A stretch of DNA of 64,000 nucleotides from Euglena gracilis (taxonomy: Eukaryota): positions 2,108,001 through 2,172,000 of the forward strand of contig CP154954.1 in NCBI GenBank assembly GCA_039621445.1, in the 5' to 3' direction. Below, in pieces: positions 3,123 to 55,600 of this stretch (position 1 is the first letter of the stretch; every line of letters starts with the position of its first letter). Under the pieces are notes generated by a model, which worked only from the letters and a program-made list of their open reading frames with translations, was not told where the DNA came from and did no database searches. A program made the position numbers and the translations under genes.

Positions 3123-4238
3123 CGATGGGGGCACAAAGGAGCGGTGCCAGATCCAGGCCTCAGGATACGAACTGTTGTTCTGGGCGGCGTCGCCCTCCGG
3201 CCCCGTGTACCCCTCCCATTGCACGTCATACATCCACTGCAGGGGGAGACGGTGTGCAGTGGCGCTCCCATCCACTCGCCGCATCAAAGTTTGCGGAACA
3301 GCGTGGCAGAGGATTTGGTGCCCCAACCCTTTCACATCGAGCTGAGCCCAACGCAGTTTCCCAACCACGGGGAAGGTTGAAGATGCTTGGCTGTCTCCTG
3401 TGATGGGGAAGAGACAACACAGGGGACCACCAAACAGAAGCTTGTGGCGAGGGGACTCCTCGGCAACATCGTTGAATTGCAACACCGGTCGTGCAACAGA
3501 CCTGGCTGCCCTCCTGCCGCGTGGAGTCGCGCAGGATGGTGACGGGGTACCAGCGCCCCTCCCAGTGGGCGAACATGTCCTGGTCGGCCATTGTCAGGGC
3601 CATTTGGGAAAAGCCGTGTGGGAGGGTCGGGGAATTCAATGAGAGGGGAGGGGGTTAAGGACGCCCCTCTCCCCCTGTGCAAAAGATTTTCCGGCACGAA
3701 GCAGCAAAAAACTGTTGGGTGGCTGAAAACAAGCCCCCAAAAAAACACGTTTCACACACCTTTTTAAAAAACCGGCAAAAAAAATGCACAAAAACTTTTT
3801 TCCCCTCCCCCATTCGACGAGGGGGATCTGGGACCTCCTGGAACCAAAAGTTTTCTCTCTGGCGCTTCGTTCAGGATTCAGGGGTGGTCTGACCTCCCTG
3901 TGCAAAATCAACTCTCACATAATACAGTGAATACAATAATACAATAATACAATAATACAATAATACAATAAGAAGGTCGGACCCCGGAGGACTGGCCCAT
4001 CCCCCACACAGCACCCACCGGGGCGCCGGGGTACTGTGCCGCCCCGTTCAGCCCTGGCCACCGTGTACAGCGGCTCGGGCCCGCAGGGCGGCGCGATGTA
4101 CTGCGGCGGTGGGGGAGGCTCCGGCACGTCCCGCAGCCGCGGCGAGCGTCGGCGCAGGCCCCGGTCGTTTGGGTTGGGGCCCTGAAGCGATGTCTGCCAC
4201 TGCTGGCAGTCGAGGCCAGCGAGATCTCGTCGAGAAAA
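3123..4238 (-). CDS. Three exons of a Tudor-knot/chromo-barrel-like protein (exons about 4060-4238, 3502-3589, about 3123-3236); gene ends not resolved
   Basis: In-frame join gives ...PPPPPQYIAPPCGPEPLYTV-ADQDMFAHWEGRWYPVTILRDSTRQEGSQ-WMYDVQWEGYTGPEGDAAQNNSSYPEAWIW. The AxW...WYPxxI and YxVxWxGY motifs fit Royal-family barrels. Intron 3237-3501 is GT...CTGCAG; intron 3590-4059 is non-conventional. First acceptor could be 4181 or 4238. Confidence 0.65.
3590..4059 (-). other. Euglenid non-conventional intron (470 nt)
   Basis: T|GGCCAGGGC...GCCCTGACAAT|G: CAG at +4..+6, CTG at -8..-6, CAGGGC pairs with GCCCTG, pyrimidine|purine at both junctions, and removal restores the frame. Confidence 0.75.
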
Positions 4239-5740
4239 CTGCATTTGGGAAAGACGCGCAACGGGTCCGTGGGATCCATGTGGAAGAAATGGAAAGAAAA
4301 CCCTCTCTCTCCCCCCCAACGCAATTCATCCACTGCCCTGGGTGGGGTTCCCCTGTCTAACGATCTGTCCAACACATTTTAATTCCTCCCGGAACCCCTC
4401 TCACCCCTTAGAAGGTACTGGCATGTGGGAGAATTTGGAGGAAAAAAAGGCCGTACGAGTCGCACCAAAAATGGGCAGCGGACGGGGGTCCTGGACCCGA
4501 GAAATGAGGATCCAAACACCTTGATTGGTGGTCAGCCCATTTTCAACCCGTCACTGCACATGACCCTTGGGGGGGGGGGGGCATGCCCGTGTGAGGTTAA
4601 AACAAAGCCTGGTGTCACCGTTCTTGCCGTCCAGTTCTTGTTTCATTTCCATGAAATTGTGCGACCCATTTAAAACTCATGGCAGAGAAGAATTTGTCCC
4701 TCATCAGAAAAACATTGGCAATCATTTAGGAACGATGGAGAGCCATCTGGATCACTTCGATCCAATGAACAAAAAAAAAAAAAAACTGTTGCGGAGCACT
4801 CTACCCTGGAGAGGGAGTTGGGTCCTGTCCGCCTGGAAAAAAAAAAGTGTGGCTCAGGACACAACAGGTGCCCAGATACACAAAGCCTCTGCCCGATGGG
4901 AAGGCGGTTAAAAAAAGCATCCAGGGAGGGAAAACACATGGCACTTGGTCCCTGCGCGGTCTGGCTGAAACGGCAGGAAGCTCTTGCCGCGCTTCTTCGG
5001 GGGGGCCGGCGGATCGTTGGCAGCAGCCATTGGGACCCACGTCCCATTTGAGGGGTGAAGGCTTTGTGGTTTTCCAGTTGTGGTCTGCCAGTGGTTCACA
5101 CCCCGCTTGATGCAGGATGTGAATGCCAAGCGGTGTTGGTTTGCAGCCAGCCATGGAATCCTTGCACCAACCCCCCCCCCCGTATTATGTGTGTGAGTGC
5201 ATCACCAAATATTGCGCGTGCATCACGGAATCCTGTGGGAATTTCTTGTCCTTTCAGGAGCTGGTGAGCGCCGCCATGCAGGTTCTGATGCTGTGCTGCC
5301 ACTCTAACCCCCCCCCCTGATAAGTGCGAAGTGCCCTAATAAGTGCGCACCCCCAAAGGAGAAACCGCCGTCACATTACACACAATCCTCGGAACTGTCC
5401 TTCTCAGACCAAATACTTCCATCATCCAAGCCCAAATTTGACAGATAATCACTTGACTCATTGCTTGACATCACAAAAGAAAGGGAAGAACTGGAAAAGC
5501 ATAGAGGAGAATTAAATATTTTGTGCTTTGTCCTAATAATTGCGCAGTGCCCTAATAAATGCGCACCCCTTGGGGTCCGAAACTACGTCCTTAAAATGTG
5601 CACGCCCATGCACTTTGGGGGGGTACACCAAAAAAAACCAAGCTTTGAGAGTTTCTTGATGGCTTGAACCACCCTCAGATGTATGTGTACAGGCCATGTG
5701 CAAGGTGGAGCTCATTCGCGTATCTGGTCAGCACCCCCAA

Positions 5741-6052
5741 CAGGCTGTTTTTTACCAACCCCGGGGGGGGGGAGGGGGGGTCCGGAGTGCCTGTGAGTGC
5801 CTGCCCAGGCAGGCACTACCCCCCCGGGGGGGGTCGGATTTCGGCCTGTGCCCGGGCACATTCCTTTGAAAATAGGCCATTTTTGGCTCCCCGGCGCCTT
5901 CGGCGCCGGGGTTGTGCTAGGGCACTTTTGGCCGTGTGCCCTACCCCCCCCCCGGGGGGGGGGTCGGGTTTGGAGTGCCTTGGGGTGCCTGCCCCCCCTC
6001 CCCCCCCCCCCCCCCCCGGGGTGGGGTCGGCACCCGACTAAAATACAGCCTG
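5741..6052. mobile_element. hAT-like MITE, family CAGGCTGT
   Basis: TIRs CAGGCTGTTTTT / AAATACAGCCTG; flanks ACCCCCAA and TCCCCCAA (8-bp TSD, 1 mismatch); homolog at 19236-19551. Confidence 0.85.
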
Positions 6053-7859
6053 TCCCCCAATCCGATCAAGCAAAAAATCCAAAAAAAAATAAAACTCCCC
6101 AAATTAAACAATTATTCCCCCTGACGGCACGAAGTGCCGAAGCAGTGGTGAAATTCCCTGGAAATTTTACCAAAAGGCCAAAAATGATGCAAATTCAAAA
6201 AATGGGACATTCAAAGGCCAAAAAAAAAAATGCAAAACATCCATGTACACCAATAAACACATGGCGTGAAATGCCGAAGGAAAGTATTTGATGTTCTGGG
6301 GAATCCCAAAAATGATGTCTTTTTCAGTCAAGGGAGAAATAACATAAAAATAACATCCCCCCCGAAAAACTGCATCCCCTGGAGGCTTCCAGTAATGGAC
6401 CCAAAAGCAAATGTCTTATTTGGGGGGGGGATCAACCTTGGGTCAATTCTTTGCATATCCATATCCCAATGTCTCCCTGAAAAAGAAGCCTCTGGATATC
6501 GTTTTGGATCAGTTGCTGAAAACATGAGGGGATTTGTTTATTTTTAATGTTTTTCGGAGAGTCAGAGAAGTTCGGTCCAATTTTTGCCCCCCCACCTGAG
6601 TTTGAACCGGACTGGAAAAATTGATGTTGCAGAGAAGCCCTAGACAGTTAACCTATAAATCTGGACAAGTACGGCGGGAGGCATAAAAAAAACATGGGAA
6701 ACCACCCCGATATTCCCATAATGTATTCCCGTGATTTTTGTCCAGTGCACCTTTTCCCCGCCCTTTGGCCGGACCAACTGAACGAGATTAGGCAAAAATG
6801 AGTTGAAAAGGGCCTCCGTATCACATTTGACATTTGGTCAAAATAATGATTTTTTTTTGCATATGCAGTGCAGACAAAAAATATTCAAAAATAATAATAA
6901 TACAGGGGAAAAAATAAGATAAATTTTTGATTTCGAAGAAAAATTTGGGAAATTCAACGCTTCAGGGGAAATGGTGGGAGTTTTTTTCAGTTGCAATGAA
7001 GCTTCTTTGACAAAAATCAACTCGGAATTTCAAAAAAAAGTCAAATGGACTGCTGGCGGTGTTTTTTGATTTTCATATAAATTAAGCCCAAGAATTGATA
7101 ACCCTGTCTTTTTGTATACAAAATTTGATTGCCCTGAGAGTGGCTCACACCAACCTCTTTAAAACAAAAAATGCTTCCACAAGACCATTTCATTTACGTT
7201 GAGCAGACTCCCTAAATTTTGTTGGTGGCTTGCAGGAATAGAATGACTTATTTGCTACTCCTTCTCCTCCCCCAGAGTCCCCTTGGCTTAAAGGATGGTC
7301 AGGGCAATAAACCTCTGCGGTCTGAGTATTGGGATATCTAATAAAACCGGTCATTTTCAGGAGGCTTTATTCTGGAGGGCAGGACGTTCAGAGCTTTGAA
7401 CAGCTGCTGTTTTTGTTTTCATTTTGCTGGAGAATCACAATGGCACCTTCTTCAGAACCGCAATGGCACCTTCATTAGGGTAGAAAGGGACTGGGCACAT
7501 GGCGTGGGCACATGCATCTGCAAAGAGGGACACTCCGTCTAGTAGGGTATCTCAAGCCATCTCTCAAAGCTTGGGAAATTTACATGTGTAGAGTGGCAGC
7601 ACAGAATCAGATCCTTCAGAGCGGCGCTCACCAGCTTCCCCCCTGTACCATGATCAAACCGTTGCATGAGATGGGGGTCCTATGTGGTTGGGCAAGAACA
7701 AAAATACAAAATTTTTCCAGAGTGAAGACTTTATTAACCGGCTTGGGTGAAATTTTTACTTCGAGTCCTTCTTCACTTCCCTTTTTTCATTAGAAAACAT
7801 ACTAACCGTACCACCCCCCCCCCCCCTTGCTACCACCGGGTTCCCTGTCGTACAACCGG

Positions 7860-8095
7860 GTTTCTGCGACTGGGGGGGGGGGGGGGGGTCGTAACACCCC
7901 CATAACCTGCAACCTGCGACCGGGGGGTGATTGTAAATGAAGGGGCGCTCGTAGGTGAGGTGGTGTTGAAATTTTCGCAACCTGCAACCTGCGACCGGGG
8001 GAATGGTCATAACACCCCCATGACCTGCAACCTGCGACCGGGGGGTGGTCGTAACACCCCCATGACCTGCAACCTGCGACCGGGGGGGGGGTGAT
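7860..8095. repeat. Imperfect tandem array containing ACCTGCAACCTGCGACCGGGGG (4 copies)
   Basis: Motif at about 7905, 7980, 8023 and 8064. Confidence 0.8.
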
Positions 8096-8226
8096 CGTAA
8101 ATGAGGGGTGGTTGTACGACAAGGGGGGGCCGGGTATGTGCCGTAGCAACAAATGGTGCACGGGTTGGTTGCGCATCCTGGATGCACTCAGGGGCTGGGT
8201 TGGGCCCAGCCGAGAGGTCGAGCTGG

Positions 8227-8339
8227 CTTGAGCTGGGGCCTGTGGCACGAAATTGGGTAAATGATTCTGGGACAGCGGAGAACTTGAGCTGGGGCCTGTG
8301 GCACGAAATTGGGTAAATGATTCTGGGACAGCGGAGAAC
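8227..8339. repeat. 57-bp exact tandem duplication
   Basis: cttgagctggggcctgtggcacgaaattgggtaaatgattctgggacagcggagaa occurs twice head to tail. Confidence 0.9.
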
Positions 8340-11300
8340 GATGGCAGCCTTGAAATTGGAGCATGTGGGGCGAGGCAATGCAAACTGGGTGATCTTTCTC
8401 AGCAGTGGACTCAAATAAGGGGGTCCAACTCAGCCGGCTGAGTTCAGATAAAAAAAATTGGCAAACATCCACAAAAAGGATTTACATTGTGACGAAGAGA
8501 CCCCCCCCAAGTTGGGCAGGGGTCGATCGGCTGGCCAGAAACAGGTGCCAGGCATCGGGAAAGAGGTCCGGTGGGCGCGTTCCAGCTGGCTGCCGGGCTG
8601 GACTGTATGGAACCAAGAAAGGGCACCCAAAACCGAGAAATGAAAAAATCCAGTTGGTTGTTTTTTCCCAGAAAATTTCCTTTGGGAAATCCCCCATATT
8701 GTCAAAAACAATCCTAAAACCCAGCTGTGTCAAAACGTCCAGGGTCCTGGTACAGAAAACGACCATTTCTCAGTTTCAGTTGAAAAACTCTAACGGGAGT
8801 TTTTGGAGAAAATGTGATGATCAAATTGCAAATTTGAACAGAAATAAATTTCCTGCCTGCTTTTTGTTCATTTCCCATCCATCCCCACCCCAAAGGTGCA
8901 TACCTTTTGACGAGGACCTCTTCACCATACAGCTTTTACCGAGCCTGGGAGTCACGCCTCTGTTGGAAAACCAGTCTGTCACTGCCCCCCCCCCCCCCCC
9001 CCCCGCAGGATCGGCAACTCTGGAATCCAAGGAGAAAACTAATCACAAATGTGGAGAAAAAGCCACATAATTCCGTCAGCTTCGGTGCCGGGTCATTGCA
9101 GTGGTTTTTTGCCAACCCCCCCCCCCCTGGGGGGAGGGGTTTAGAAGACAAAAACCAGTCACCCATGGGGGGGGGGTGTCGGCCAGTGACTAAGCGACTA
9201 ATTTGTGGAATTATCCTTGCTACTCAGTGAAGCTTCCATGAGAAGGCAACTGTTTCCCAAAGCAAGCTTGCAGTCACCACACCTTCTGGTCTTTCGGCTA
9301 CATTCCCATCAGGAACAGAAACAGGTTCACTATCGAAAGGGTTTGAAGTGGTTGTCCCCACATCCTCGCACAAAGCCATACGAGTCAGTCATTGAGGCTG
9401 ACAACCATAAGTTGAAACACAATTGAATCTGCAAAAATAAAAAAACAAACCTGTCCGTTGAAGTGGCCTGATTAAGAGCTACAGTGATTCATCTAAACTG
9501 AAGAAACCGCCATTCCTGTAAATAACCACCTGCAGACTGCCTTCTTGGCCTGCCGTCAGCCCAAGACATTATTGACGAGAACGCTTGAAGGGCCCCCCAA
9601 TTGACCCCCAGCCGGAGCCCAGAGGGGTTCCGTTTGGGGGGGGGGGGGATGGTGCATGCCGTTTGCGGTCTGTTTTGAGGTAATGAAATATGAAAAAGCC
9701 GCAAACAAGCCTCCAGACGTCCATTTTTGGACAATTTGGGGAAGATTAAATGTCTTTTTTCAAAAAAAAATCTCAAAAATAAAACAAAAAGGCACAGCAT
9801 TTTCTCCAAAAAAGCATGTTCTTTGCATTTTTGGGGGCTTTGGAATCCATTCGAAAAGATTTTCTCCTTTCAGTAATTCACCCTGTTTTCTTGTTCTGTG
9901 GTTTTTGGAAGGATACATGGACATCTGACTGCACGGGGCAGTCCAATGAGACTTATCCCCCGCCCAATATTCACTTGGCCAGCAGCCCTTCACCAGTCCC
10001 TAAGGGGGGGTGTACTCCCATTTCGGAGGTCAACTTTTTACTGCATTTTGGAAATTTTGGAAATTTTGCGTTTTATGCATTTTGGAAAGATCAGTTCTAT
10101 CCAGCCAAATAAAAAAAAGCCAAAACAGGCCATTTTGAAGGTTTTCAAAAGTTGGCTTTTTGATCCATGTCCATCGGCCGGCAATCAGGGTGATAATATA
10201 GGGGGAGATGGTACGTTTCTTTAACTCTGTTTTTATGCCTTTGGAACTGGACTACCAGAAAAAGGCGGGGTGGAGGACACTGTGGAACCTTCCCACAAGG
10301 GACCCCACAATGACCTTTAAAGACTTCCTGCAGAACTGCAGAACTGCAGAACTGCATTTGAAAGATGGGCATAAGCCAAACACAAGCAACAAGAAAAAAT
10401 ACCACAGCAATGATCATTCCGAAACTTTCTCAAAAATGTGGAAATAAGGTGGGAAAATGATTCTTCGGGAATATAAACCCCCCTCCCAAATATAAAGCCC
10501 CCCCCGGCTTTATATTTGGACGGGATTTCAAGACCCTCAGGGGGGGCTTTATATTTGGGGGGGGGGGCTTTATACTTGGGGGGAGATCAAACTTTTTCGG
10601 GTGGCCTTTATGACCTTCGGCGGCCTTCAATTGTGGCCAAATACCAAATATATGCCAAATTTTTGTTGTGCACCTTCTATTTTTCGCAGAAATTTGCAAT
10701 TATTATCCAAAATGGAGGATCAATGTCGAAAAAAAAGGTGTATCCACCCAAAATGTTTCAACTTTTTCCTGAATGACACCATCATCTGGCTCCCTCATCA
10801 TGGGGGGGCTTTATATTTGGGCGGCAAAACCAAACCCCCTGGGGGGGGGGCTTTATATTTGGGGGGGGGGGGGGCTTTATATTTGGAGGGGAGGTTTACA
10901 GTCAAAGCAAATGAAAATCATGCCGAAAATTTGGTGGAAAAAATGAGGATTAAACCCCCCTCACTTATAAACCCCCCGGGGTTTATACAATCCGGTTTGG
11001 TTGGTCGGCTGAAGGGGGGGTTATAGGTGGGGGGGGTTACAGGTCCCGGAATTGTTGGTGAAAATCTGACCCCTCAAAATGACCCCGCTCCCAGCCAGAC
11101 TGGGGAACCTCTGGGGGGGGGGGGTGCAGTGGAAATGAAAAAAATCCCCAGATCGACGAAGCCAGGATAGACCAGGAAAAAAATTGGCGCAACCCAAAAA
11201 TTGTCGAAAAGGAATGATCAGAAAAGGTCAAAATGATGTTTTTTTTGTGGGGTTTTCTAGACTTTTCCCTGGAAAAAAAAAGCCTGAAAAATCCCCACCC

Positions 11301-12162
11301 AGCTGGATTTTGGCAAGGTGCCAGTTTTTGGGATCAGCCAGGTCTAGCCCAGCAGCTGGTAGGACGATGCCTGCCCCGCCCCCAGCACCCACTGAGGGAA
11401 TTCAGCTTGCATATTTTTCCAACCAGCACATTTTTCCACCTGGCTACTCCCCCTCCTCTTTCTGGGAATCCTTAAAAAAGGAAATTCCTGGTGGGAGGAA
11501 GCAACGTGGATAAAAAAAAGCAAAATCGATGTCAAAAAAGCACGATTTTTATAATTTTGCTTTTTATTGGCCAAAAAAAGTCAAAGATTACAAAAAGGGA
11601 GGAAAGCTAGGTCCAAAATGAGGAGTTTTTCGAATTCGAAAACATTTTCCAGCAGAAAGAAAAAAATCGCTGGGAAACGCAAAAAAAGGTGAGAAAAAAC
11701 AAAAAAAAACTGCATATTTTTCAGAAATAAAAAATACACAAAAAAATCAAGAAAAAAACACCCCCATGTCCCACCCAGCAGTGTAATGCATCAACCTTCT
11801 ATTGCAAAAAACTTGGAGGAGAAAAACTCAAAATTGGCAACTGTGCAGGTCTTCGTCTACATACGAAAGAACAGAAAACCAGCCCACACACGCACGCACG
11901 CACGCATGCCGCACACATGCACAGCACAACACACGAACTTACACACGCACACATGTGGCAAAAGATGACACCATCAGTGCAGAACCTTTGATCGGTTGGA
12001 TTCTTTAATTGGTTTCTTTCCTGTAGGGGTCATCTCTAAGATAGCGTGGAAGATACCAGGGGTGTCTTCCACTACCAGCGGTAAAAAAGAGAAAAGACAC
12101 CGTGGAGAAAGAGATAAGAAATAGTTGGTGATTTCCCGTTACTTCGTCTCCCATATCCGGAC

Positions 12163-12597
12163 CAGGCTTTTGCTTAAGGACCCCCGGGGGGGGGGGGTAC
12201 TGGCTAGCCAATTGGCTAGACACTGGAAAAAATGGACTAGCTAGACCCCCTCCCCCCCCGGGGGGGGGGCCAGGGGTCCCCCCACTGGGAAAAAAAGTTC
12301 CTCCGGCGCTGCGCGCTGAGGTGGAAATGAGGATTTTAATAGGTTTTGGGCTGATTTTGTTCGAAAAAATTCCCAAAAAATGGCCAAAAACGGGCATTTT
12401 TGGACATTTTTGGGGCCCAAAAAAGTTCCGGCGCTTCGCGCCGGTCACTGGAAAAAAAAAATTCCACTAGCTAGCCCTGCTAGCAGACCCCCCCCCAGGG
12501 GGGGGGTCTGCTAGCAATCCCACTAGCCAAATTTGGACTAGCTGCAGTCCAGCCCCCCCCCCCCAGGGGGTACTGCAATCCCTTAAGCAAAAGCCTG
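12163..12597. mobile_element. hAT-like MITE, family CAGGCTTTTGCTTAAGG
   Basis: Perfect 17-bp TIRs CAGGCTTTTGCTTAAGG / CCTTAAGCAAAAGCCTG; perfect 8-bp TSD ATCCGGAC (12155-12162, 12598-12605); inverted homolog at 54001-54357. Confidence 0.93.
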
Positions 12598-12865
12598 ATC
12601 CGGACTGCATCCTGTGGCCTCAACCCACGTTCCAAACGCTTGGGCGGTAGAAGTCATCCTGTGGGAAAAAGTAAATGTCAGCCAAAAAAAATATAAAACC
12701 AGTAAAAAGATTAGCGGAGCAAAACACTTGAGAATGATTTTGAAAGTGCCAGGAGCAAGTTCATAAAATGAAGAGGGATAAAACCTATGTGGCACTAAGG
12801 TGCCAAGCTGGTATGTAACAAAGCAGGTACTCCAAGCGTTGCGGGGTCAGCCAAAGGTCAGAAGA

Positions 12866-14450
12866 AACTTGTGAAGTTAGCCATAAATGAAAGGTGGAAA
12901 TACTCATAGTGAACCTATTTAAAGGTATCCCAAAATACAATTTGAAAATTCCGTGAAAACTAATCTCAGACGAAATACTCCTGGAAACAACGGACAATAA
13001 AAGATAGGTATGGACGAGGGGCTGTGTTGACACAAAACTATATCTGCCCCATCTCCAGCACTCTCCTCGAAGGGGGGACAACATTTTTATGACCTCCAAT
13101 AATAGAAGTTGGGCAAGGGAACTCAAAACTTAACACAAAAACGAAAAGGGGGAAGAGGGTTATGTTGGTGCGATACCCCCAAAAAAGAGATTTCATTGAG
13201 TGAGCTTGCTTAACAATGGAATGCAAAAGCGCTGTGAAGACACGCGATATGCCCAGGGATTGATGGGAAGCCTTGGGAGGGGGGGGTTGGCCCCCCTTCC
13301 CGACACGGAGGGCCCCCATCCCTTCTATTTCGAAAATGACATGGGCCCGGAAAATTTTCGGTTTCGCGGACTGGCAAAGGGCAAAAAAATGTACGGAAAT
13401 CGCTGATTTTCTTTGAAAATAAATCCAAAAAGGCTCATTGTTTGAACATTTTTTGTGGAAATATGGAAATCACTAAAACATCAAAAAAAAATGGGAAAAT
13501 GCTCAAAAGTGAGGGAAAAGGGCGTTCATTTTCCGGTGCAAAGGGCCGGAAGAAAACTTTTCGCTATTTTTGGAACCTGCCGAAGAGGGGGGGTCCGGAC
13601 ACCCCCTCCCAACATCGAGGATGGGGGGGTCTGGACTCCCACCTACCACCTTACCTTAACTTGTGAAGTTAGCCATAAATGAAAGGTGGAAATACTCATA
13701 GTGAACCTATTTAAAGGTATCCCAAAATACAATTTGAAAATTCCGTGAAAACTAATCTCAGACGAAATACTCCTGGAAACAACGGACAATAAAAGATAGG
13801 TATGGACGAGGGGCTGTGTTGACACAAAACTATATCTGCCCCATCTCCAGCACTCTCCTCGAAGGGGGGACAACATTTTTATGACCTCCAATAATAGAAG
13901 TTGGGCAAGGGAACTCAAAACTTAACACAAAAACGAAAAGGGGGAAGAGGGTTATGTTGGTGCGATACCCCCAAAAAAGAGATTTCATTGAGTGAGCTTG
14001 CTTAACAATGGAATGCAAAAGCGCTGTGAAGACACGCGATATGCCCAGGGATTGATGGGAAGCCTTGGGAGGGGGGGGGGGTTGGCCCCCCTTCCCGACA
14101 CGGAGGGCCCCCATCCCTTCTATTTCGAAAATGACATGGGCCCGGAAAATTTTCGGTTTCGCGGACTGGCAAAGGGCAAAAAAATGTACGGAAATCGCTG
14201 ATTTTCTTTGAAAATAAATCCAAAAAGGCTCATTGTTTGAACATTTTTTGTGGAAATATGGAAATCACTAAAACATCAAAAAAAAATGGGAAAATGCTCA
14301 AAAGTGAGGGAAAAGGGCGTTCATTTTCCGGTGCAAAGGGCCGGAAGAAAACTTTTCGCTATTTTTGGAACCTGCCGAAGAGGGGGGGTCCGGACACCCC
14401 CTCCCAACATCGAGGATGGGGGGGTCTGGACTCCCACCTACCACCTTACC
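12866..14450. repeat. About 790-bp near-identical tandem duplication (12866-13655 / 13658-14450)
   Basis: Copies differ visibly only in G-run length; duplicated ORFs appear in the ORF track. Confidence 0.92.
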
Positions 14451-14687
14451 CCTGGGGGGGGGTGTCCAACTCCCACCACCCACCTCAAAAACGAAGGGTT
14501 TCCCATCTATCCGTGGATATGCCACCAAATTCCACCCTTCAGAAACTCAGAATAAAGTAGGCTCAGCCATTTTGCCTTTGGGCTATAATTGGTGATGCTT
14601 ACTGTGCCGTAGTGGAAAAGACGGGCAAAAAAAGTGGACCGTTTTCCAAACTACACATTGGAAGGAAAAGAAACGCAGACAGTTGGG

Positions 14688-38730: not shown

Positions 38731-38802
38731 CAAATCTGGCGATCAGGGATCGTAGGATCCGCGAAGCATGGGAACACATGGGAATGGACAACACACCCAC
38801 CG

Positions 38803-44191: not shown

Positions 44192-44825
44192 TGTGTACCA
44201 GGCAGCCATGATGCCATGGCATTGTGTGTTACAAAGGGCGAATGCCTGTTAGCTGGCCTTTGGCCAGCTGCACACAGTGCTATGTGATTCTGCACTAACT
44301 GGTGATGAGACGTCCCAGTTAGGGAATTCTCCTGCAGAATAAGAAACACTTGGTTCCTACTTAGCTTAAGGTTTTATTGGGTTGGTTTTGTAAGTAGGTT
44401 TTCCTTTGAGGGGCGAAGACCCCAATCTTTACAATTATTTTTGTTCTGTTTATCAAGACCCGAAGAGGTCAACAAGAACAACAGAAAAGGGACTCGGGTC
44501 CCAAAACAAAATCTCCTCTCCCTTTGCCTTGTGCTCTGCATAAAGGGGTCAAAGGGTTTATAAATTTTATTTTGTTACTCCCGCGCCTTTTCTGGGAGAA
44601 AGGGAAAAGCGAAAGAGAAAGGGCGGGACGTACACTTGGTAGCAGATTAGGTAAACGGTCTTACGACCCCCCCCACAAATTTTCAGCTGAGCGCCAGCTC
44701 GTACGCACAGGCGAGGAGTCCCAGGTGGCACAAGCAGCTACGGCCGCACAAAAAGCCCCTGATCTCCCCACCTTTGCTTACATTTTTGGGTTTTTGTGTC
44801 AATTTTCACAATTTTCCCCCAAAAT

Positions 44826-47800
44826 ATGCAGAGTACAACTCCCAACTGGAATGCACCTATTAACTATGAATTGTTAATAGGTTCACAGACAAAACCGCTT
44901 CGGCGGTGTACAATTTTACAAAAGGGACGGGTGTACAAGCCGCTTCGGCGGATCCCCCTCTTACAACGGGTTTTAGGACCCAATCCCCCCCTACAACGGG
45001 TTTTCGGACCCCAACCCCCCCTACAACGGGTTTTAGGACCCAATCCCCCCCTACAACGGGTTTTCGGACCCCAACCCCCCCTACAACGGGTTTTCCGAAC
45101 CAGCCCCCCCCTGCAACGGATCCACAAGGGGCGGACGCCCAAGTCGCTAACGCGACAGAAAATTTTTATCCACAAGGGGCGGACGCCCAAGTCGCTTTAG
45201 CGACCGAAAATTTTTATTCACAAGGGGCGGATGCCCGAGCCGCTTCTGCGGTGGAAAATTTTTCCTTACAAGGGGCGGATGCCCAAGCCGCTTCGGCGGT
45301 ACCCCCCTCACAACTGGGTTTTCGAACCCAAACCGCTTTAGCGGTGCCCCCCCCTACTACAAACCGCTTCGGCGGTGCCCCCACCCTCCAAGGGTCTTCG
45401 GACCCAAGCCGCTTCGGCGGTGCCCCCCACCTCCAAGGGTCTACGGACCCAACCCGCATTTGCGGACCCAACCTTACAATCGCCGCATTTGCGGTACAAC
45501 ATAACCCTACAGTGGATCTACGGACCCCCTCCGCTTCCGCGGATTCTGACTCACAAGTGGGCAGAATGCCCGAACGGGGTTGGCAATTAGTGCCTCTTGG
45601 CACCCAATTGCCAGCAGAGCCCCCCCCTTACGAGGACGGGTTGGAAACACCTTGTTTTTTCCAACCCCCCTCGGCCCTTCCACCGGTAAGCCCCATTCGG
45701 GACTTGCCCCCCCCCTCCACAATTGGGAGAAATCCCAGAACTACCTTGGTCCGCTGAAATGCGGTTGGTGGTCCCGGACACTGCCAGTGTCATTGTTCCC
45801 ATGGACAATGACCCCGTGGAAGACCGGGATTCGTTCTCCAGTAATACCGTTGAGCGCGTAGTCGCAAATTTACCGGAGAACCACCCACTACAACAGCAAT
45901 TTCGACACATCGAAGCATGTGTCCAAAATTGCGCTAAAACACTGAACCAAGTCCTACAATTTGGTGAAGACAGTCACAAGGCCGTTTTCGGCAAGCTGGA
46001 CTTCCTTTGGCAATACGTCCAAGAATTTGGACAATTTTGCCAAAAGAATTTCAACTCCACTACAATGGACCTTCAGAACCTCCACCAAGGTTTTGACGCA
46101 TTTTTGCGCAACACCTTGGTACAAAATTTCCAACAGGTACAAGAGACCCTCCAAACCGCGGAATCGCGGAATAACGCAAAACTTTCACATTTACAACAAA
46201 ATCTACAACAACTGTTCACACAACTTGAAACCTTGTCTTATACAATGCAAGAAATGCAGTCCCGGTTACAACAACGGGATAAAGCGCCTACGGGTGCGGA
46301 ACTGGGCTCATATGTGTCATATGAGCACTTTTCAACTTTGTCCAATGTTGTACAACAGTCCCAAGAACGCATTTTGCGTTTGGGTGATGAAAACGCGAGT
46401 TTTCATCAAAACGTTGCACAAATACGCGAAAACTATGTACAAAGAGCTTTTGCTCAACAATTCGAAGAGCGATTGCTCGTTTGGAACAAACTTCCTGCAA
46501 ATGCGGTGAAGTTTCCCACAATTTGACCACATTGCACACTAAAGTGGCGGAAATCGCGCATCGGCAAGATATCCTCCATGAAAAGTGGCAAAATGATATA
46601 CAAAAACTTGAAACTGCTTCCAATGCGCTACAAACCGCTACGGCGGAGCTCCAATCCCGCGATGCGGTGACTCTTAGCTTACAAACCGCGAATGCGGAAC
46701 TTCAAGACCGAGAAACGGTCATAACTACCATCCAAACCGCGAATGCGGACCTCCAAATTGCGTTTGCAGACCTGAAAACCGCTTTTGCGGATGTTTCGGG
46801 ACTACAAACTGCAATTGGGGACTTACAACGCCGCTTTGCGGAAACTTCCACAAAAAATCCCAGTATGGGAGCATTACGATCCACTGTAACCGATTTGCAC
46901 AATCAGTTACAAGCGGATGTGAACAAAATCGAATCCGCGTTTGCGGATTTGCACAAACGGTGCAACGGTATTCAAAACTCAATTCCGGATGTCACCGGCA
47001 TTGAAACCGCACTTGCGGATTTGAATACCCAAAACAAAACCTTACAATCCACTACTTCCCATTTACAAAAACGCGTACAAACACTTTCTACAAGGGTCTC
47101 CGGACTCCAACCATCCTCGGATGGACAAACGGTTCGCGAAGTCGAACTACCCCTTGATTTTCGCACATTTTACGACCAAATGCTTGCGAAAAATCAGGAA
47201 AACTTACAAGAATTTTGTGAAACCTTGATGAGGACCGAAAATTCGGTCACCCAACAAGTTCTCACACTAAAACAACAAATTTCGGTGTTGGAGAACCGAC
47301 TTTCTACAATGATGGATGACAAAACCGCTGAAAATGCGGTAGGGGTACCCCAACCCACTTTGGGTACCACAACCCCACAAAGCGAGAATCGGTTCAACAC
47401 CATTACAACCGCAATGGAAACTTTGGCCAAACGGGTCCAATACTTGGACACCGCTTTCCCAAAGCTTTCAGCGGATTTTGACTCCATTGTTGACAAATTA
47501 CCACTTTTAGATGAACTACCCTCACACCGCAAATGTATTAAGCGTTTGCAGGGTGATGTTGAACGAATTTCGGACCTTTTCCAAGTGGTTGGTTCATTGG
47601 AACAAAGTATCCAAGATTTTGCATTGAGTTTGGATGAGATTCATGCAAAATCCCGCAACCCACCACACTTTGCCCATGAAAACGAAGTTTTCAGTGGTCA
47701 AAATGCAACTTCCAGCTCACAAAGCGCTGTTTGCGCATCAACCGAAACACCTTCGGATGCCCGACATCCAACTCGCTACTTTGTGCATCAAATTCGCGGC

Positions 47801-48371
47801 TCGTTGGATGCGAATTTTTCCAAAGGCGCAGTACGCGCATCCCTACAAGCATCCTTGGATGCACATGCCCTACAAGCATCCACGGATGGACATGATCATG
47901 AACATGCTTACAATTGCGATTACAATCGCCCGTTTATACCACAACTTAAGATTCCCCCCCATAAGGGTGAATCTTCGGATGAGGAACCGGTTTTTGCCTC
48001 AAAAACCGTGAATCCTCCGGTTTTACAACAAGAATTTCGTGAATCGGAACTAATTCGCGGAATGAGCCATATCCCTACCCCGGGTATTGGTCATTGGTCG
48101 CGAATACGAAACGCGGAATCTACCGCGGTTCCCCGATTTGCGGGTGAACAACGGGATTCCTACCCCCCTGATATGTTACCACACCCCGAAGCGCGGAATC
48201 GCGACACTTTACAATCAGAATCGCGGAATCGCGACATTCTACAACAGGAATCGCGGAATCGCGACATTCTACAACCAGAATCGCGGAATCGCGACATACC
48301 ACCACCAAATTTGCGGAATCGCGACGTACCATACACCCATGGTACCTGTGGTACCATGAGCAACAACCTGG
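44826..48371 (+). pseudogene. Frameshifted long coiled-coil ORF, possibly gag/ORF1 of a retroelement, 3'-truncated
   Basis: Overlapping ORFs 44796/44906/45723/46481 join through about three frameshifts from ATG 44826; intronless, distinct codon style, heptad-rich (LQTANAELQ, LQTAIGDLQ), 30-bp internal repeats at 44960-45120 and 48190-48330, PPPY motif. No diagnostic domain recognised. Confidence 0.5.
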
Positions 48372-48386
48372 ACCCTAACCCTAACC
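48372..48386. repeat. Short interstitial telomeric tract (CCCTAA)n
   Basis: accctaaccctaacc joins the coiled-coil ORF to LRR-array intron sequence (accatgtctcgttttt..., compare 51895 onward). Confidence 0.78.
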
Positions 48387-49404
48387 ACCATGTCTCGTTT
48401 TTTTTTATTTGCACCGAAAAGGGTATTTCTCCCCACATTTCCAGCAAAGAACCTGCTGAGTTGCACAAAGCACTGTGAACGAAGTGACTCGTTTGTGACA
48501 CAACACCTTCCCATCAAGGCGAGGAGAGCAGGCGAGCAGCACCTCTGAGGTGAATTTTTGGTGGGTTACAAAATAATCATTTTTTTACTGCAACAAATAT
48601 TGGAGGTGGCCTCAAGACCATGCCCGTTTTCCAGGATCAGCGGGATATAGTTTTTTTCAGTTCCCAAAAACTGTACAATAACTGGCAAACACCAAAAACT
48701 GGCAGGTATGCTTTGCATCACGAATCACCGTCAGGCTGAGTTTTATGGAGGCACCGACCCCACCCTAGGTAGTGCGTGGGGAGGTGCACCCAGATCCAAA
48801 CCCCCCCTGGAGGCACATGGCAAGGGTGGGGGGGGAAAATTTCCACCTGCAATTTTTGCATTTTTGTACAATTTTTGATTTTCCTCAAATGTGCAATTTT
48901 TTTTGCAATTTTGTGCATTTAATTTCACATGCCCCAGGATTTTTTTGTTTTGGAAAACGTCAGCTTTTGATGCAATTGAGGATTTTCTAAAACCCCGCTG
49001 GTTTTCTGGAGCCGGAAGTCACCCTGCCCGGGGGGATCCAGCCTGCCAGCAACCCCCAAAATTTTGGAGAAAGGGGTCAAAAACAGCCAAAATATGTATT
49101 TTTAGGTGCTTTTTGGGTTTTACCTCCTGATTTTGATTAGAAATGGCAACGCAGCTCGATTTAGGTTTTTTTTGAGGGACTTCTTGGGTATCTGCCGGCT
49201 GCTCAACCCCACGGGCCCCCCACCTCTTTGGCTGGTGATTCAGCCTGCACTTTTTCAACCCCCACCCAGCCAGCACCTTTTTCCAGCTGGCCCGCAGTTA
49301 TTGTCTGTTTTTGCTTATTTCCACCTTAGAGCCTGTGGCTACCGTGACCCACAGTTTGTTCCCGTGTTCTTTGCCCCTTCCCTTCCTCCCCTTGCCCTGC
49401 GCAG

Positions 49405-49679
49405 ACAACGCCATCGGGCCGGAGGGCGCCAAAGCGTTGGCGGAGGCCAGGGCTGCGCTTCTGAACGGGGGAAGGTTGCCACACACCCGGGGGTAGGGGA
49501 AGTGTTGGGGCGGTGGGGGAAGGGTCAGCGTTGGTGATGAGGCTGCCGTGTGAGGGACACCAAACCACACACCCCACCCTCCCCAAGGTGTGGGGGTGTG
49601 TGGGGGTGTGGGGTGAGAAGCGGAGGGCTGGCCCCGGCTCTCCGGACTAACGCCACGCTGCAGGAGGTGAACCTCGGCA
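49405..49679 (+). CDS. LRR module 1 (type A): exons 49405-49444 and 49636-49679
   Basis: AG acceptor, 40-nt exon, intron GGCCAG...CTGGCCCC, 44-nt exon, GTATG donor. Confidence 0.88.
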
Positions 49680-52600
49680 GTATGCCCCCTCCCCTCCCCT
49701 CCCGTCCCGTTCCGTGGGGTGTTTCTCTCCACCGGGATGGGCCGGTGCTTTGAAAAGGAACCGCCGCCACGAACCCCCCGTCGCCCATGGTCTCTGCTGG
49801 CGGCTGCCCACTGAATCGCTCGGCGCAGTTGGGTTGTTCTCGCTGGGTCTCGGCTGTTGGTCCGCAGTCACGGCACCCGTCTCCCCCCACCCCACTCCCT
49901 GGGTGTGGTGCCCCCGCCCGTCTCGTCCGGGCGGTGCGTCGTCGTGTGGCGTGGAGAGGGGGTTTCCCTTGGTGGTTAATGGTGTCTTGAGTGCTTGCGG
50001 TGTGCTGGGGGATCAGGCCCAAGGATGGGCCGAGCTGCCTGACGGGACCAACCAAAAATACCCGACACATGTCTTTCTCGGAAGTTCCGCAGCTGACCAA
50101 AGTTACACCCAAATTTTGCTGCCTCATTTTTGTTTTTTTTTTGAAATTTTCAAAACATCTCTAAAATGAAGCAAATGAATAAATTTTTCAACATCAAAAG
50201 CAGCCTGCAAACTGCCCTGTCTAACCATATTTTAGTTTCAGTGTGATGGCCCTCATTAAGTTCATCAGGCATTTTTGCTGGAATTTGCTGGATTTTGCTT
50301 GATTTTTGAAATCGTTGGCATTTCGTAATTTCTCGCCTTTGAATACAGTGATTCCTTGGGCCAGGTAGGGAATTCCGGGAGCCCTCATGGAACGGAATTT
50401 TTTTTCCCGCATATCCCAAGCTCTGGCGTGTAGCTGTAGCCTGTTTGCGACACCAAACAGTGCTGCAAGCCCCCCACTCTACCATTCTCGTCCATTTTTG
50501 GGCCGACAAAAACCGTTTTGTACACTCCAGTTTGGGACATTTTTTTTTTGGGCCCCGTAATTGAGAAATACCAAATATCTCGAAAAATGAAGCAGAATCA
50601 AGCAGAATGGCCGAATATCCAAATTGAAGCCTTTACAATGCCCAATTGAACAGTTTTTTAGTGCCACCAAGCCCGAGATATGGCTGATTTATGCCCCAAA
50701 TCAGCACTGAAGGCTTTTTCGGGCCGGGCCGGGCCGCCGGGCTCGCGCCGGTTACCTTGCTGTTCATAACAAAGAAAACGTGGCAATTCCAGACCCTCCC
50801 TGTCCAACGCATTTTTCAGAAACAAACAAAAAAAGGTCGACGATTTGCGTCTTTGTGAATTTTTTATTGCAATTTTTTTGCAGTTTTGCCTAATTTCACC
50901 CAAAAAATGACGAAAATGAAATTTTCAACCAATTTTTGGTTGGCAAATTCTGTTCAACACTCTGCACTGCCCAAAGAGTCACCTGGACAACGAGAGGGGA
51001 AGAGTGGGCACCCGCAGCTTTTGAATCAAAACTGGTGTTTTTTCTCAGGGTTCAACGTATACCTGCTGCTGCCCACAGAACACATACATGCACACACTCG
51101 GGTGGGGAAATCCATTTTGTTTGCAGCATTTGGACAGTGGAATTGGAGGACATTTTTTTGCATTTCTTGCCGTGAGCGCCCAAGGTGCGGTGTTACTGGG
51201 CTGAGGGCTGAGGGCTGAGGGCACAGCGATCAGCAGAGTGCCCTCCCAGCCATGTGTGGCCCCTTTCCCCTCCCTCCGCCCCCTGCTGTCCGGCACATAG
51301 GCAACGACATTGGGATCGAGGGGACCGTAGCGTTGGCGGTGGCCAGGCCTGCGCTTCAGCGATGTCATCCCCCCCCCCCGGGGGGTGCCGGGGTGAATGG
51401 GTCACAGGAAGGCCTGGGCGGCCGGTGAGGGGGTGGGGTGGAGGCGGTGACGGCCGGCCAAGGCAGAGGAGAGGGGCCGGGTGGGAGTGGGGGCTACCGA
51501 GGGCCCGGCCCATCAGCTGGAGGGGAGGGCTGGCAGGTAGCAGACCCCCCATGGCTGGCGTGGCACTGTTGGGGCGGGTGTGGGTTGGGAAAGCGAAGGG
51601 GTGGCCCCGGCGCTGCGGACCAACTCCACGTTGCAGAAGGTGGACCTCTACAGTGTGGCCCCTCTCTGCGGTTCCTGTCACACACGTTGGTGCATTGGTG
51701 TGACGGGGAGGTGTCGTAGCAAAACCGTTTGTGTTAAAATGGTATCAGCCATATTTTCCACCACCTGCCATTGTGGGGTGGGGTGACAATGTGGCACCGT
51801 CAGATTCCAGCCAGCAGGATTGAGGGGAGGGGTTGATCCATGTCTGAGGACATGGAACAGTGCAATGCCTGTGGTGGTTTGTCGCACCAAACCCACCATG
51901 TCTCGTTTTTTGTTTATTTGCACCGAAAAGGGTATTTCTCCCCACCGAAAGGAGTTTTTGTTACCACATTTCCAGCAAAGCACCTGCTGAGTTGAACAAA
52001 GTCCACAAGACCCCCATCTCTTTGGGGGGTGATTCAGCCTGCACTTTTCTTCCCCCCAGCCAGCACCTTTTTCCAGCTGGCCCGCAGTTTTTGTCTGTTT
52101 TTTCTTATTTCCACCTTAGAGCCTGTGGCTACCGTGACCCACAGTTTGTTCCCGTGTTCTTTGTCACATCCCTTCTTCCCCTTGCCCTGCGCAGACAACG
52201 ACATTGGGCCGGAGGGCGCCAAAGCGTTGGCGGAGGCCAGGGCTGCGCTTCTGAACGGGGGAAGGTTGCCACACACCTGGGGGTAGGGGAAGTGTTGGGG
52301 CGGTGGGGGAAGGGTCAGCGTTGGGGATGAGGCTGCCGCGTCAGGGGCACCAAAGCCGCACACTCCACCCTCCCCAAGGTGTAGGGGTGTGGGGTGTGGG
52401 GGTGAGAAGCGGAGGGCTGGCCCCGGCTCTCCGGACAAACGCCACGCTGCAGGAGGTGCAACTCAGCCGTATGCCCCCTCCCCTCCCGTCCCGTTCCCTG
52501 GGGTGTTTCTCTCCACCGCGATGGGCCGGTGCTGTGAAAAGGAACCACCGCCACAAACCCCCCGTCGCCCATGGTCGCTGCTAGCTGCTGCCCGCTGAAT

Positions 52601-55600
52601 CGCTCGGTGCGGTTGGGTTGTTCTTGCTGGGTCTCGGCCATTGGTTCACAGTCACGGCACGCGTCACCCCCCACTCCACTCACCTGGGTGTGGTGCCCCC
52701 GCCCGTCTCGTCCGGGCGGTGCTTCATGCGGCGTCGAGTGGGGGGTTTCTCTTGATGGTTAATGGTGCCTTGAGTGCTTGCGGTGTGCTGGGGGATCAGG
52801 CCCAAGGATGGGCCGAGCTGCCTGACGGGACCAACCAAAAATATCCGACACATGTCTTTCTCAGAAGTTCCGCAGCTGACCAAAGTTACACCCAAATTCC
52901 GCTGCTTCATTTTTGTTTTGTTTTTTCTGAAATTTGAGAATATATCTAAAATTAGTAAAATGAGTAAGTTTTCAACATCAAAAGCAGCCTTTAAACTGCC
53001 CTGTCTAACCATATTTTGGTTTCAGTGTAAAGCCGTAATTAAATTCATCCAGCACTTTTGCTGGAATTTGATGTATTTTGCTTCATTTTTGAAATTGTTG
53101 GCATTTCGTTATTTTGCGCCTTTGAATACAGTGATTCCTCCCTCGGGCCAGGTGAGGAATAATGGGAGCCATCATGGAACGCAATTTCTTGCTGTCCCGC
53201 CCATCCCAAGCTCTGGCGTGTTTGCGACACCAAACAGTGCTGCAAGCCCCCCACTCTACCAGTCTCGTCCATCCCGCCTTTGGGCCGACAAAAACTGTTT
53301 TGTGCAGTCTAGTTTGGGACGTTTTTTTCTGGGCCCCAAAATTGCAAAATGCCAAATATCTCGAAAATGAAGCAGAATCAAACAGAATGTCCGAATATCC
53401 ACATTGAAACCTTCAAAATGCCCAACTAAACTGTTTTTTATTGCCGCCAAGCCTGAGATATGGCTGATTTACACTCCCAATCAGCACTGCAGGCTTGTCC
53501 GGGCCGGGCCGGGTACGTTGCTGTCATCACAAATAGCTCAGCACTAAAGAAAACGTGGCAATTTCAGACCCCCCCCTTTCAACGCACCCCTCAGGGCCGA
53601 CCAAAAAAAGGTCGACAATTTGCGCCTTCTGGATTTTTTAAGTAGTTTTGTCGAATTTTCACCCAAACAATGCACAAAATGATATATGTTACCGATATTT
53701 GGTTGGCATATTCTTTTCAACATTTTGCACTGCCCAAAGAGTAACCCAGACCACCCCCTCCCAGCCATGCGTGGCCCCTTTCCCCTCCCTCTGCCCCCTG
53801 CTGTCCGGCACGCAGACACCGGCCTTGGGGACGAGGGGACCGTGACGTTGGCGGTGGCCAGGCCTGCACTTCAGCGATGTCATCCCCCATCCACAGGGGT
53901 GCCGGGGTGGATGGGTCACAGGAAGGTCGGGGCGGCCGGTGAGGGTGGGTGGAGGCCGTGACGGCCGGCCGCTGCCAAGGCAGAGGGGAGGAGCCGGGTG
54001 CAGGCTTTTGCTTAAGGGATTGCAGTACCCCCCCGGGGGGGGGGGGCTGGACTACAGCTAGTCCAAATTGCCTAGTGGTATTTCTAGCAGACGGGGTTCT
54101 GTTAGGGCTAGCTAGTGGAAAAAATTTTCCTGTGACCGACGCGGACCCCCAAAAATGGCTAAAAATGCCCGTTGGGAATTTTTGTAACGAAATCAGCCAA
54201 AAACCTACTCAAAACCTCATTTTTCCAGTTCGGGGACCCCCCGGAAACCCCCCACCCCCGGGGGTGGAAGTGGGTCTAGTTAGTCCACTTTTTTCCAGTG
54301 TCTAGCCGATTGGCTAGTCAGTACCCCCCCTTCCGGGGGTCCTTAAGCAAAAGCCTGGCCGGCAGGGAGTGGGGGCTGCCGAGGGCCCGGCCCATCCGCT
54401 GGAGGGGAGGGCTGGCAGGAAGCGGACCACACATAGCTGGTGTTGCACTGTGGGGGTGGGGGTTGGGGAAGCGAAGGGGTGGCCCCGGCGCTGCGGACCA
54501 ACGCCGCGTTGCAGAAGGTGAACCTCAGATGTATGGCCCCTCTCTGCGGTTCCTGTCACACACGTTGGTGTATTGGTGTGACGGGGAGGTGCCGTAGCAA
54601 AACCGTTTGTGTTAAAATGGTATCGATCATATTTTCCACCACCTGCCATTGTGGGGTGGGGGGACAATGTGGTACCGTCGGATTCCAGCCAGCAGCATTG
54701 GGGGGGGGGGGCTGATCCATGTCTTAGGACATGGAACAGTGCAATGCCTGTGGTGGTTTGTCGCACCAAACTCACAATGTTCTGTTTATTGTTAATCTGC
54801 ACTGAAAGGGGTATTTGTCCCCACATTTCTAGCAAAGCACCTGCTGAATTGCACAAAGCACTGTGAGCGAAGTGACTCGTGTGTGACACAACACCTTCCC
54901 ATCAAAGCGAGGAGATGAACCCTACAGCACCTCGGAGGTGTATTTTGGTTACGAAAGGATCATTTTTTTTACTGCAACAAACATTGCAGATGAATACTTT
55001 GGGTTTTCTTGAGCCGGAGGTGACCCTACCCGAGGGGGGGTCCAGACTGCCAGTAACTTTTTTCCAGTCATCACCTCCCAGCTGGGCTGGGATCCACACC
55101 CTGTTGTGGGTCCGTTGGGATACAGTTTAGGCCAAGCCAGCGAAGCCGGGCAGTTACCGATAATGTTTTCAGCGCAAAGCCACAAAATTTTGGAGAAAAG
55201 GGTCAAAAATGGCCAAAAATGTATTTTTTAGGTGCTTTTTGAGTTTTCACCTCCTGATTTTGCTTAAAAATGGCAACGCGGCTCGATTTAGGTTTTTTGG
55301 GGGGGACTTCTTGGGTACCTGTCCCCCCAGCCAGCAACTTTTTCCAGCTGGCCCGCAGTTTTTGTCTGTTTTTGCTTATTTCCACCTTAGAGCCTGTGGC
55401 TACCGTGACCCACAGTTCGTTCCCGTGTTCTTTGTCACTTCCCTTCTTCCCCTTGCCCTGCGCAGGGAACTCCATCGGGTCGGAGGGCGCCAAAGCGTTG
55501 GCGGAGGCCAGGGCTGCGCTTCTGAACGGGGGAAGGTTGCCACCCCCCGGGGGGTGGGGGAAGGTTTGGGGCGGTGGGGGAAGGGTCAGCGTTGGGGATG

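Follow-up and report, generated by a model that had tools for sequence, protein, structure and literature searches.

Introduction

Can the nonconventional introns of euglenids have come from transposons that the cell removes again from its RNA, and how could such a removal be exact to the nucleotide? The origin and removal of these introns have been debated since the 1990s, and the question is raised anew by a 64 kb stretch of the genome of Euglena gracilis (assembly GCA_039621445.1, contig CP154954.1, positions 2,108,001 to 2,172,000), hereafter called the window. It is repeat-rich eukaryotic DNA with a GC content of 44-58%, in which transposable elements of the miniature inverted-repeat type (MITEs) that start with CAG, mostly end with CTG and are flanked by 8-bp target-site duplications (TSDs) lie beside introns of the nonconventional type. 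To our knowledge, intron borders of this type have been described only in euglenids and diplonemids.

The code of these introns, 5'-N3CDG-/-CH'GN5-6↓R (the arrow marks the splice site here and below), was set by knock-in mutagenesis (Nomura et al., PNAS 2025, PMC12501133). According to this paper, the 5' spacer must be 3 nt long, the 3' spacer is 5 nt long, 6 nt being tolerated less efficiently, splicing depends critically on the CAG-CTG pair, and the exon that follows begins with a purine. In E. agilis, 71.8% of introns are nonconventional; of those, 69.1% slide and 61.2% conform to the code (PMC12501133). The 3+5 spacing, from which the sequence-only reading of the window had started, is in this way already an established experimental rule (PMC12501133).

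The same paper calls the origin of the introns unclear and suspects MITE-like elements (PMC12501133); its text contains neither "hAT" nor "duplication" and uses "target site" only for the knock-in locus. A MITE origin had been proposed by Milanowski et al. in 2014, when no euglenid transposable element was known (PMC3935182), and a 2024 review labelled CAG/CTG as a terminal inverted repeat (TIR) and noted TSD-like repeats at the junctions (PMC11282704). The general idea has been suggested before in all three sources (PMC3935182, PMC12501133, PMC11282704). The arithmetic by which 3+5 equals the length of an 8-bp TSD is apparently new, no paper that makes this link having been found in the open literature, supplements apart, and the reading given below is apparently an unpublished synthesis of published facts and new evidence on MITEs.

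MITEs with Intron-Like Ends and 8-bp Duplications

The window carries at least six, probably eight, non-autonomous DNA transposons of 235-502 bp that belong to 5 to 6 families (Table 1). They were collected by a seeded scan for inverted ends with matching flanks together with reading of the sequence, and were grouped into families by self-BLAST within the window. Five of them, named here by their first positions (5741, 12163, 15346, 19236 and 54001), had been recognized from the sequence alone and are real: they start with CAG, end with CTG (GTG in 19236) and have TSDs that match at 7, 8, 8, 7 and 6 of 8 positions, respectively. Three further copies, 18069, 23553 and 27970, were added. In the whole set of eight, CAG...CTG ends are found in all copies but 19236 (GTG) and 23553 (ATG), and the TSDs are identical at 8/8 positions in three, 7/8 in three and 6/8 in one, the last copy having an 8-bp TSD with one indel. 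Random pairs of 8-mers taken from the window reach an identity of at least 6/8 with a probability of 0.007 and of 8/8 with a probability of 0.0002.

Controls point to the same duplication length. Among 147 CAG...CTG pairs with a TIR match of at least 10/12, the flanks were identical at 6/8 or more positions in six, and this level was reached by none of the 147 when the flanks were moved outward by 8 nt. The next outward base fails to extend the repeat in two of the three perfect TSDs, and the ninth base is ambiguous at 15346. In the leucine-rich repeat (LRR) gene array of the window, two paralogous units preserve an empty site, in which a single GCCGGGTG is followed by GGAGTGGGG, and the filled unit reads GCCGGGTG-MITE 54001-GCCGGCAG-GGAGTGGGG; MITE 54001 was therefore inserted with a duplication of exactly 8 bp.

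The published code, applied to these elements, predicts that six of the eight MITEs would count as introns in one orientation or both. The purine rule holds for all six on the minus strand and for 12163, 27970 and 18069 on the plus strand. For MITE 27970 with its 3+5 flanks, a terminal stem is predicted, with a z of -7.8. An open reading frame (ORF) at 27521-27967 runs into this MITE, and without the element and one TSD the ORF grows from 149 to 208 aa, i.e. by 59 aa; neither a relative, in a comparison with proteins of 81-261 aa, nor a Pfam family was found for it. This ORF has short tandem repeats on either side (27521-28390).

The summed word depth in a DNA-like sequencing run was about 10^5 in the bins with families A and B vs 70-280 in the lowest-depth bins, i.e. 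about a thousandfold difference, which suggests very many copies of these families, word depth not being the same as copy number and runs of G/C possibly inflating it. Metagenome matches to the 17-nt TIR of family B were obtained at 71 loci with one match each; no locus (0/71) had a partner TIR of at least 13/17 within 1.2 kb, and the matches were set aside as chance.

A Proposed Way from MITE to Intron

The coincidence of element ends and intron code can be put together as follows. A MITE would land in an exon in either orientation and make an 8-bp duplication; its inverted ends would pair in the pre-mRNA, and the nonconventional splicing machinery would cut 3 nt upstream of CAG and 5 nt downstream of CTG, in agreement with the published rule. 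The MITE would then leave together with 3+5 = 8 nt, which amounts to a single copy of the duplication, and the mRNA would again be that of the gene before the insertion. Any pair of offsets with a sum of 8 would do, 3+5 being the pair that the enzyme would use. In our opinion, it is rather probable that insertions into exons are removed in this manner, each with exactly one of its duplicated copies, and that nonconventional introns of the code type go back to such insertions, long past, with decayed duplications.

Some features of the ends bear on the enzymes. A 2-nt 3' overhang is predicted on the terminal stem in both folds calculated, that of intron 14802-14931 and that of MITE 27970 with the 3+5 flanks. 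Such an overhang is the hallmark of RNase III-type cuts. The offset of 3 vs 5 would weakly fit an RNase III-like cut followed by ligation, and the flanks of a fresh insertion, being direct repeats, need not pair. An enzyme of the RNase III type or of the tRNA-splicing type has been suggested for the noncanonical introns of diplonemids and euglenids (PMC12621601).

RNA-Defined Introns of the Window

Two RNA-like contig sets, the type of which was guessed, and raw RNA reads were aligned to positions 3000-22999, and a DNA-like contig set served as a control for splice joints in the same stretch. The joints considered are the best-supported ones among those listed, a further 939 joints lying beyond these. 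Ten joints, which belong to two minus-strand genes, were backed by the RNA sets and were all absent from the DNA-like contigs; six of the ten introns so defined are nonconventional, and the remaining four are GT-AG introns. A joint is said to slide when repeated nucleotides at the junction allow alternative registers, and intron coordinates are given here in a register that the sliding allows.

Joints 3585>4056 and 14799>14930 were supported by both RNA-like contig sets and by raw reads (9 and 25, respectively), and DNA-like contigs run unspliced through 3111-3689, which covers the 3590 end of one of the introns, and through 14454-15087, which covers the whole of 14802-14931. The borders deduced earlier for these two introns, 3590-4059 and 14802-14931 on the minus strand, proved to be exact once sliding of 5 nt and 2 nt is allowed, and the flank letters quoted for them and for the LRR intron were correct. 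Both introns fit N3-CAG...CTG-N5↓purine exactly. Intron 14802-14931 has a predicted fold of -35.8 kcal/mol (z -3.7) with a terminal stem.

Other RNA-defined introns are less regular. The TAC/GTG stem of intron 17173-17929 is outside the published CDG/CH'G motif, and the 4-nt 3' spacer of the RNA-proven intron 4151-4966 contrasts with the published assay, in which such spacing spliced poorly. A tandem duplication with a unit of about 795 bp (12860-14450) lies wholly within intron 12883-14543, in the 3' untranslated region of an EF-hand-like gene.

Further introns of this type are suggested by the reading frame of the LRR gene array. They have the form gcgga↓GGC CAG GGCTG...GGG CTG GCCCC↓ggc, with junctions identical at 5/8 positions in the six copies scored, and their removal restores the frame ...KALAEA↓LRTNATL.... 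The copies of the CTG type appear to match the published code N3-CDG...CH'G-N5-6↓purine. CTG at -8..-6 is replaced by GTG in three of the eight copies (51341-51608, 53856-54486 and 59201-59470), and published mutagenesis predicts that this impairs splicing, so that the units concerned are possibly pseudogenes or rely on another pairing. The LRR introns (e.g. 55506-55694) and intron 3590-4059, although found in unrelated genes, have the same first 11 nt, GGCCAGGGCTG, at the 5' junction; a wider kinship between them was tried and rejected, local alignment being no better than that of shuffled sequences (38/300 reach the score).

In the array (49400-60700), each 28-residue repeat is divided between exons of about 40 and 44 nt, with a short nonconventional intron and a long GT-AG-looking intron alternating between them. 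The motif GGCCAGGT[AG]AGGAAT.. is conserved at 50359, 53146, 56356 and 58806, once per LRR unit, after ..acagtgatt...

Table 1. Positions and borders of transposable elements and introns in the window (lower-case letters, exon; identities are given for TSDs or for junction 8-mers)
Feature	Positions	Strand	Length	Ends or borders	TSD or junctions	Remarks
MITE, family A, copy 1	5741-6052		312 bp	TIR CAGGCTGTTTTTTA/CAGGCTGTATTTTA; starts CAGGCTGT..	5733-5740 ACCCCCAA, 6053-6060 TCCCCCAA; 7/8	Inside nonconventional intron 5030-8164
MITE, family B, copy 1	12163-12597		435 bp	TIR CAGGCTTTTGCTTA, 14/14	ATCCGGAC on both sides; 8/8	
MITE, family C, single copy	15346-15719		374 bp	TIR CAGACTTTCA...	CACCCCTT on both sides; 8/8	Inside GT-AG intron 14981-17110
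Candidate MITE	18069-18570		502 bp	TIR CAGAGTTCCCCC/CAGGATTCCCCC, 10/12	CCTTGGAG/TCTTGGAG; 7/8	Inside GT-AG intron 17979-20716
MITE, family A, copy 2	19236-19551		316 bp	3' end GTG	CTCAATGT/CTCAATGA; 7/8	76% identical to copy 1; inside GT-AG intron 17979-20716
MITE, internally related to family A	23553-23840		288 bp	TIR CAGGCTTGTGCTTA/CATGCTTGTGCTTA; end ATG	ATACAAC/ATACATAC, i.e. ATACA(T)AC; 8 bp with one indel	
MITE, family D, single copy	27970-28204		235 bp	TIR CAGGGGTTTTTTTT, 14/14	GTTTTGAC; 8/8	
MITE, family B, copy 2	54001-54357		357 bp		GCCGGGTG/GCCGGCAG; 6/8	Inverted, 72% identical to copy 1; nested in putative LRR intron 53856-54486
Nonconventional intron	3590-4059	-		ggt↓GGC CAG GGCTG...GCC CTG ACAAT↓ggcc	ACGGTGGC/ACAATGGC; 6/8	Slides 5 nt
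Nonconventional intron	4151-4966	-		AGC CAG...CTG CGCC↓g	3/8	RNA-proven; 3+4 spacing
Nonconventional intron	5030-8164	-		No CAG/CTG		RNA-proven; slides 4 nt (CCAA)
Nonconventional intron	12883-14543	-		Stem TGAAGGGTGGA		One contig set and 4 raw reads; 2+5 or 3+4 spacing
Nonconventional intron	14802-14931	-	130 nt	tta↓GAA CAG GCTTTT...AGC CTG GTCTT↓gac	3/8	
Nonconventional intron	17173-17929	-		Stem TACACC/GGTGTG in place of CAG/CTG	4/8	RNA-proven; 3+5 kept
GT-AG introns	3237-3501, 8240-9282, 14981-17110, 17979-20716	-				
LRR gene array	49445-60667	+				Eight paralogous copies of one ancestral nonconventional intron, deduced from the reading frame
LRR intron copies	49445-49635, 51341-51608, 52235-52424, 53856-54486, 55506-55694, 57964-58154, 59201-59470, 60479-60667	+				

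Elsewhere in the window, motif-only nonconventional introns were sought in a coiled-coil gene (44800-48600); the 54 candidates were dropped, since many of them keep the frame open by chance. A large inverted duplication occupies 35700-44400, the ORF translations of about 35.7-38.4 kb being mirrored at about 41.9-44.4 kb, and the core of about 3.5 kb between the inverted arms has matches to reverse transcriptase and RNase H-like sequences and a GC skew of +0.31 to +0.33. Judged by these features, the region resembles a retroelement whose long terminal repeats are inverted.

Do the Introns Resemble Old Insertions?

If nonconventional introns are decayed insertions, traces of the duplication may be sought at their junctions. 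The 8-mers compared were the last 5 nt of the exon plus the first 3 nt of the intron and the last 5 nt of the intron plus the first 3 nt of the next exon; for introns outside the code, the junction register was picked by the analyst. In seven independent nonconventional introns the identity amounted to 6, 3, 4, 5, 3, 1 and 4 of 8 (mean 3.71), and mismatched junction pairs average 2.48 (permutation p=0.011). The comparison with mismatched pairs that had been recommended for the whole genome, when made within the window, gives a modest excess, with no more than 1 to 6 of 8 positions identical. The four introns that have 3+5 spacing scored 6/8 (3590-4059), 5/8 (LRR), 4/8 (17173-17929) and 3/8 (14802-14931); taken alone, these four give p=0.08 with only 24 permutations possible.

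A more direct link is provided by CAGGCTKT, the 8-mer at the termini of families A and B. It occurs 14 times in the window, with 5.6 occurrences expected, and none of 100 shuffles reached 14. Of the 14 sites, seven are MITE ends and a further two form the ends of intron 14802-14931; no more than the first three letters of the motif are required by the splicing code. The presence of this 8-mer at both ends of 14802-14931 is the best single link between MITEs and introns in the window.

Quite a number of observations weigh against the derivation of these introns from MITEs. No MITE was removed on its own among the best-supported joints listed for 3000-22999, and two of the elements, GTG-ending 19236 and ATG-ending 23553, fail the splicing code. 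Five of the eight (5741, 15346, 18069, 19236 and 54001) are inside larger introns, and because of this location their self-excision would leave no trace in mRNA; 12163 is outside the RNA-defined exons, and 23553 and 27970 are beyond the RNA-covered stretch. The permutation result is fragile at n=7. All four GT-AG introns score 3/8, and junction preferences alone therefore raise the identity. In the four 3+5 introns, the identity sits in the 3-nt part (10/12) and not in the 5-nt part (8/20), and the pyrimidine↓purine preference described for both junctions (PMC11282704) could explain part of the 3-nt identity. Intron 14802-14931, which carries the terminal 8-mer, has a weak junction identity (3/8), and three of the seven nonconventional introns depart from 3+5, having 3+4 or 2+5 spacing or no motif. 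In addition, sequence 3590-4059 and sequence 14804-14934, which extends a little beyond the intron, match only themselves in the window, and the DNA contigs over 3111-3689 and 14454-15087 have depths of 77 and 86, like the lowest-depth bins; because of both facts, the compared introns have no link with a MITE family beyond the terminal 8-mer.

Alternative Explanations

The superfamily of the elements is the first point at which another explanation has to be considered. It is possible, if on the unlikely side, that they are sources of introns as proposed and belong not to hAT but to Merlin or another class with 8-bp TSDs. Elements of the hAT superfamily have 8-bp TSDs, a YARNG consensus of the TIR and the target pattern nTnnnnAn. 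The MITEs of the window are like them in the TSD length, in the short TIRs beginning with CAG and in the size of 235-502 bp without coding capacity. All copies start with CAG, the partner end being mutated in two, and the fifth base is the hAT-like G in some families (CAGGG, CAGAG) and C in others (CAGGC, CAGAC), so the TIR past CAG is only partly hAT-like. T is found at TSD position 2 in 4/8 and A at position 7 in 5/8, or 9/16 together as counted by eye, which would fit the hAT target pattern.

No transposase family was detected among the 118 ORFs of at least 125 aa in the window at E<=0.001, neither a hAT domain nor a Merlin DDE domain; the only Pfam families recorded among 10 chosen ORFs and these 118 were RVT_1, CLZ, NPV_P10 and MORN_2. 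An autonomous hAT element is absent from this set (0/118), which leaves room for another superfamily, and the lack of the Merlin DDE domain from the same ORFs tells against Merlin. The hAT label given from sequence alone is unproven: it is in line with a TSD of 8 bp and with ends that start with CAG, but the window has no transposase among these ORFs. In favour of Merlin, two families with 8-bp TSDs have been reported in E. gracilis (PMC8101967), and this makes them similar to the elements described here in a euglenid genome. Merlin elements are, however, reported to have TIRs that end with 5'-GG and TSDs of 8-9 bp (PMC8101967), whereas all copies in the window have CAG; the inverted CA/TG letters belong to the MITEs.

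A coincidence, which we regard as unlikely, would leave the MITEs and the introns unrelated. The enzyme alone would set 3+5 from the CAG:CTG stem, the MITEs would be a separate class that by accident has a widespread terminal trinucleotide and an 8-bp duplication in common with them, and the repeats at intron junctions would arise from base preference or break repair. Such an explanation is favoured by the junction identity of only 1 to 6 of 8, by the three of seven introns that are off-geometry, by the absence of a MITE spliced alone among the best-supported joints listed and by the two compared introns being unrepeated in the window; moreover, few TSD lengths exist, and a chance match to 8 bp would, by our own estimate, have a probability of perhaps 1 in 6. 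Published data on the gapC gene of E. agilis can be quoted on both sides. A strain-specific, newly gained nonconventional intron of this gene is bordered by direct repeats of eight nucleotides, the longest among the introns studied, and the authors ascribed them to double-strand-break repair (Milanowski 2016, PMC4770533). On the other hand, in the only young intron published the repeat is eight nucleotides long, neither more nor less (PMC4770533). Coincidence must also cover two independent matches, that of the terminal CAG/CTG and that of the sum of 8, and leaves unaccounted for the terminal 8-mer of families A/B that stands at either end of intron 14802-14931, itself proven by RNA, and the excess of junction identity over mismatched pairs (p=0.011).

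The reverse direction, in which MITEs would be excised nonconventional introns copied back into DNA with 8 flanking bases carried along, is highly improbable: excised introns are circular and of full length (PMC11282704) and would join N5 to N3 as an 8-mer, but copies of one family have different 8-mers, each repeated around its own copy (ACCCCCAA and CTCAATGT in family A, ATCCGGAC and GCCGGGTG in family B), and the empty paralogous site with one copy of the 8-mer corresponds to target duplication, so this direction is contradicted.

Significance

Returning to the derivation of introns from exonic MITE insertions, it may be concluded that the origin suggested by the sequence-only reading is partly borne out. 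The CAG...CTG ends, the 8-bp TSDs and the published 3+5 cuts agree with it; no MITE was seen to be spliced on its own among the best-supported joints listed, and the identity at the junctions is modest. The support that the window gives to the central evolutionary claim is circumstantial. In its widest form, to which we would give somewhat less than an even chance, this claim is that the non-spliceosomal introns of euglenids represent a precise excision at the RNA level that is matched to one class of transposons, with every exonic insertion being erased without a scar from the first generation.

If this is true, the matched excision would explain the nonconventional share of about 70% among Euglena introns and the tolerance of exonic insertions, and the stagger of 2 nt would suggest that the missing enzymes are a nuclease of the RNase III kind and a ligase, narrowing the search for them. 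If the sum of the spacers is the duplication, the question of origin becomes a genome-wide count on existing data. The elements described here are the first concrete MITE families with ends that match the intron code.

Comparison with Known Systems

Introners of Micromonas and other algae are also short transposons with TIRs that become introns, and a TSD helps their exact removal (PMC11282704). In contrast to the introns of the window, introners are spliceosomal, their 3-nt TSD makes a splice site, and they form many near-identical intron copies (PMC11282704). The introns considered here are removed in a non-spliceosomal way and are not repeated, 3590-4059 and 14804-14934 having no match but themselves, and in our proposal the whole 8-bp TSD would be consumed by the cuts.

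The hypothesis of a MITE origin, as set out earlier, shares with our results the inverted repeats, the TSD-like repeats, the recent gains and one 8-nt repeat (PMC3935182, PMC4770533, PMC11282704). The passages concerned in these sources contain neither a tie between the 3/5 spacers and an 8-bp TSD nor the name of a superfamily.

The closest relatives of the introns described are the code introns of Euglena (PMC12501133), with which 3590-4059, 14802-14931 and the putative LRR introns agree letter for letter, having paired ends, borders other than GT-AG and sliding junctions. Unlike that study (PMC12501133), the present one shows, beside such introns, families of MITEs with matching ends and an 8-bp duplication.

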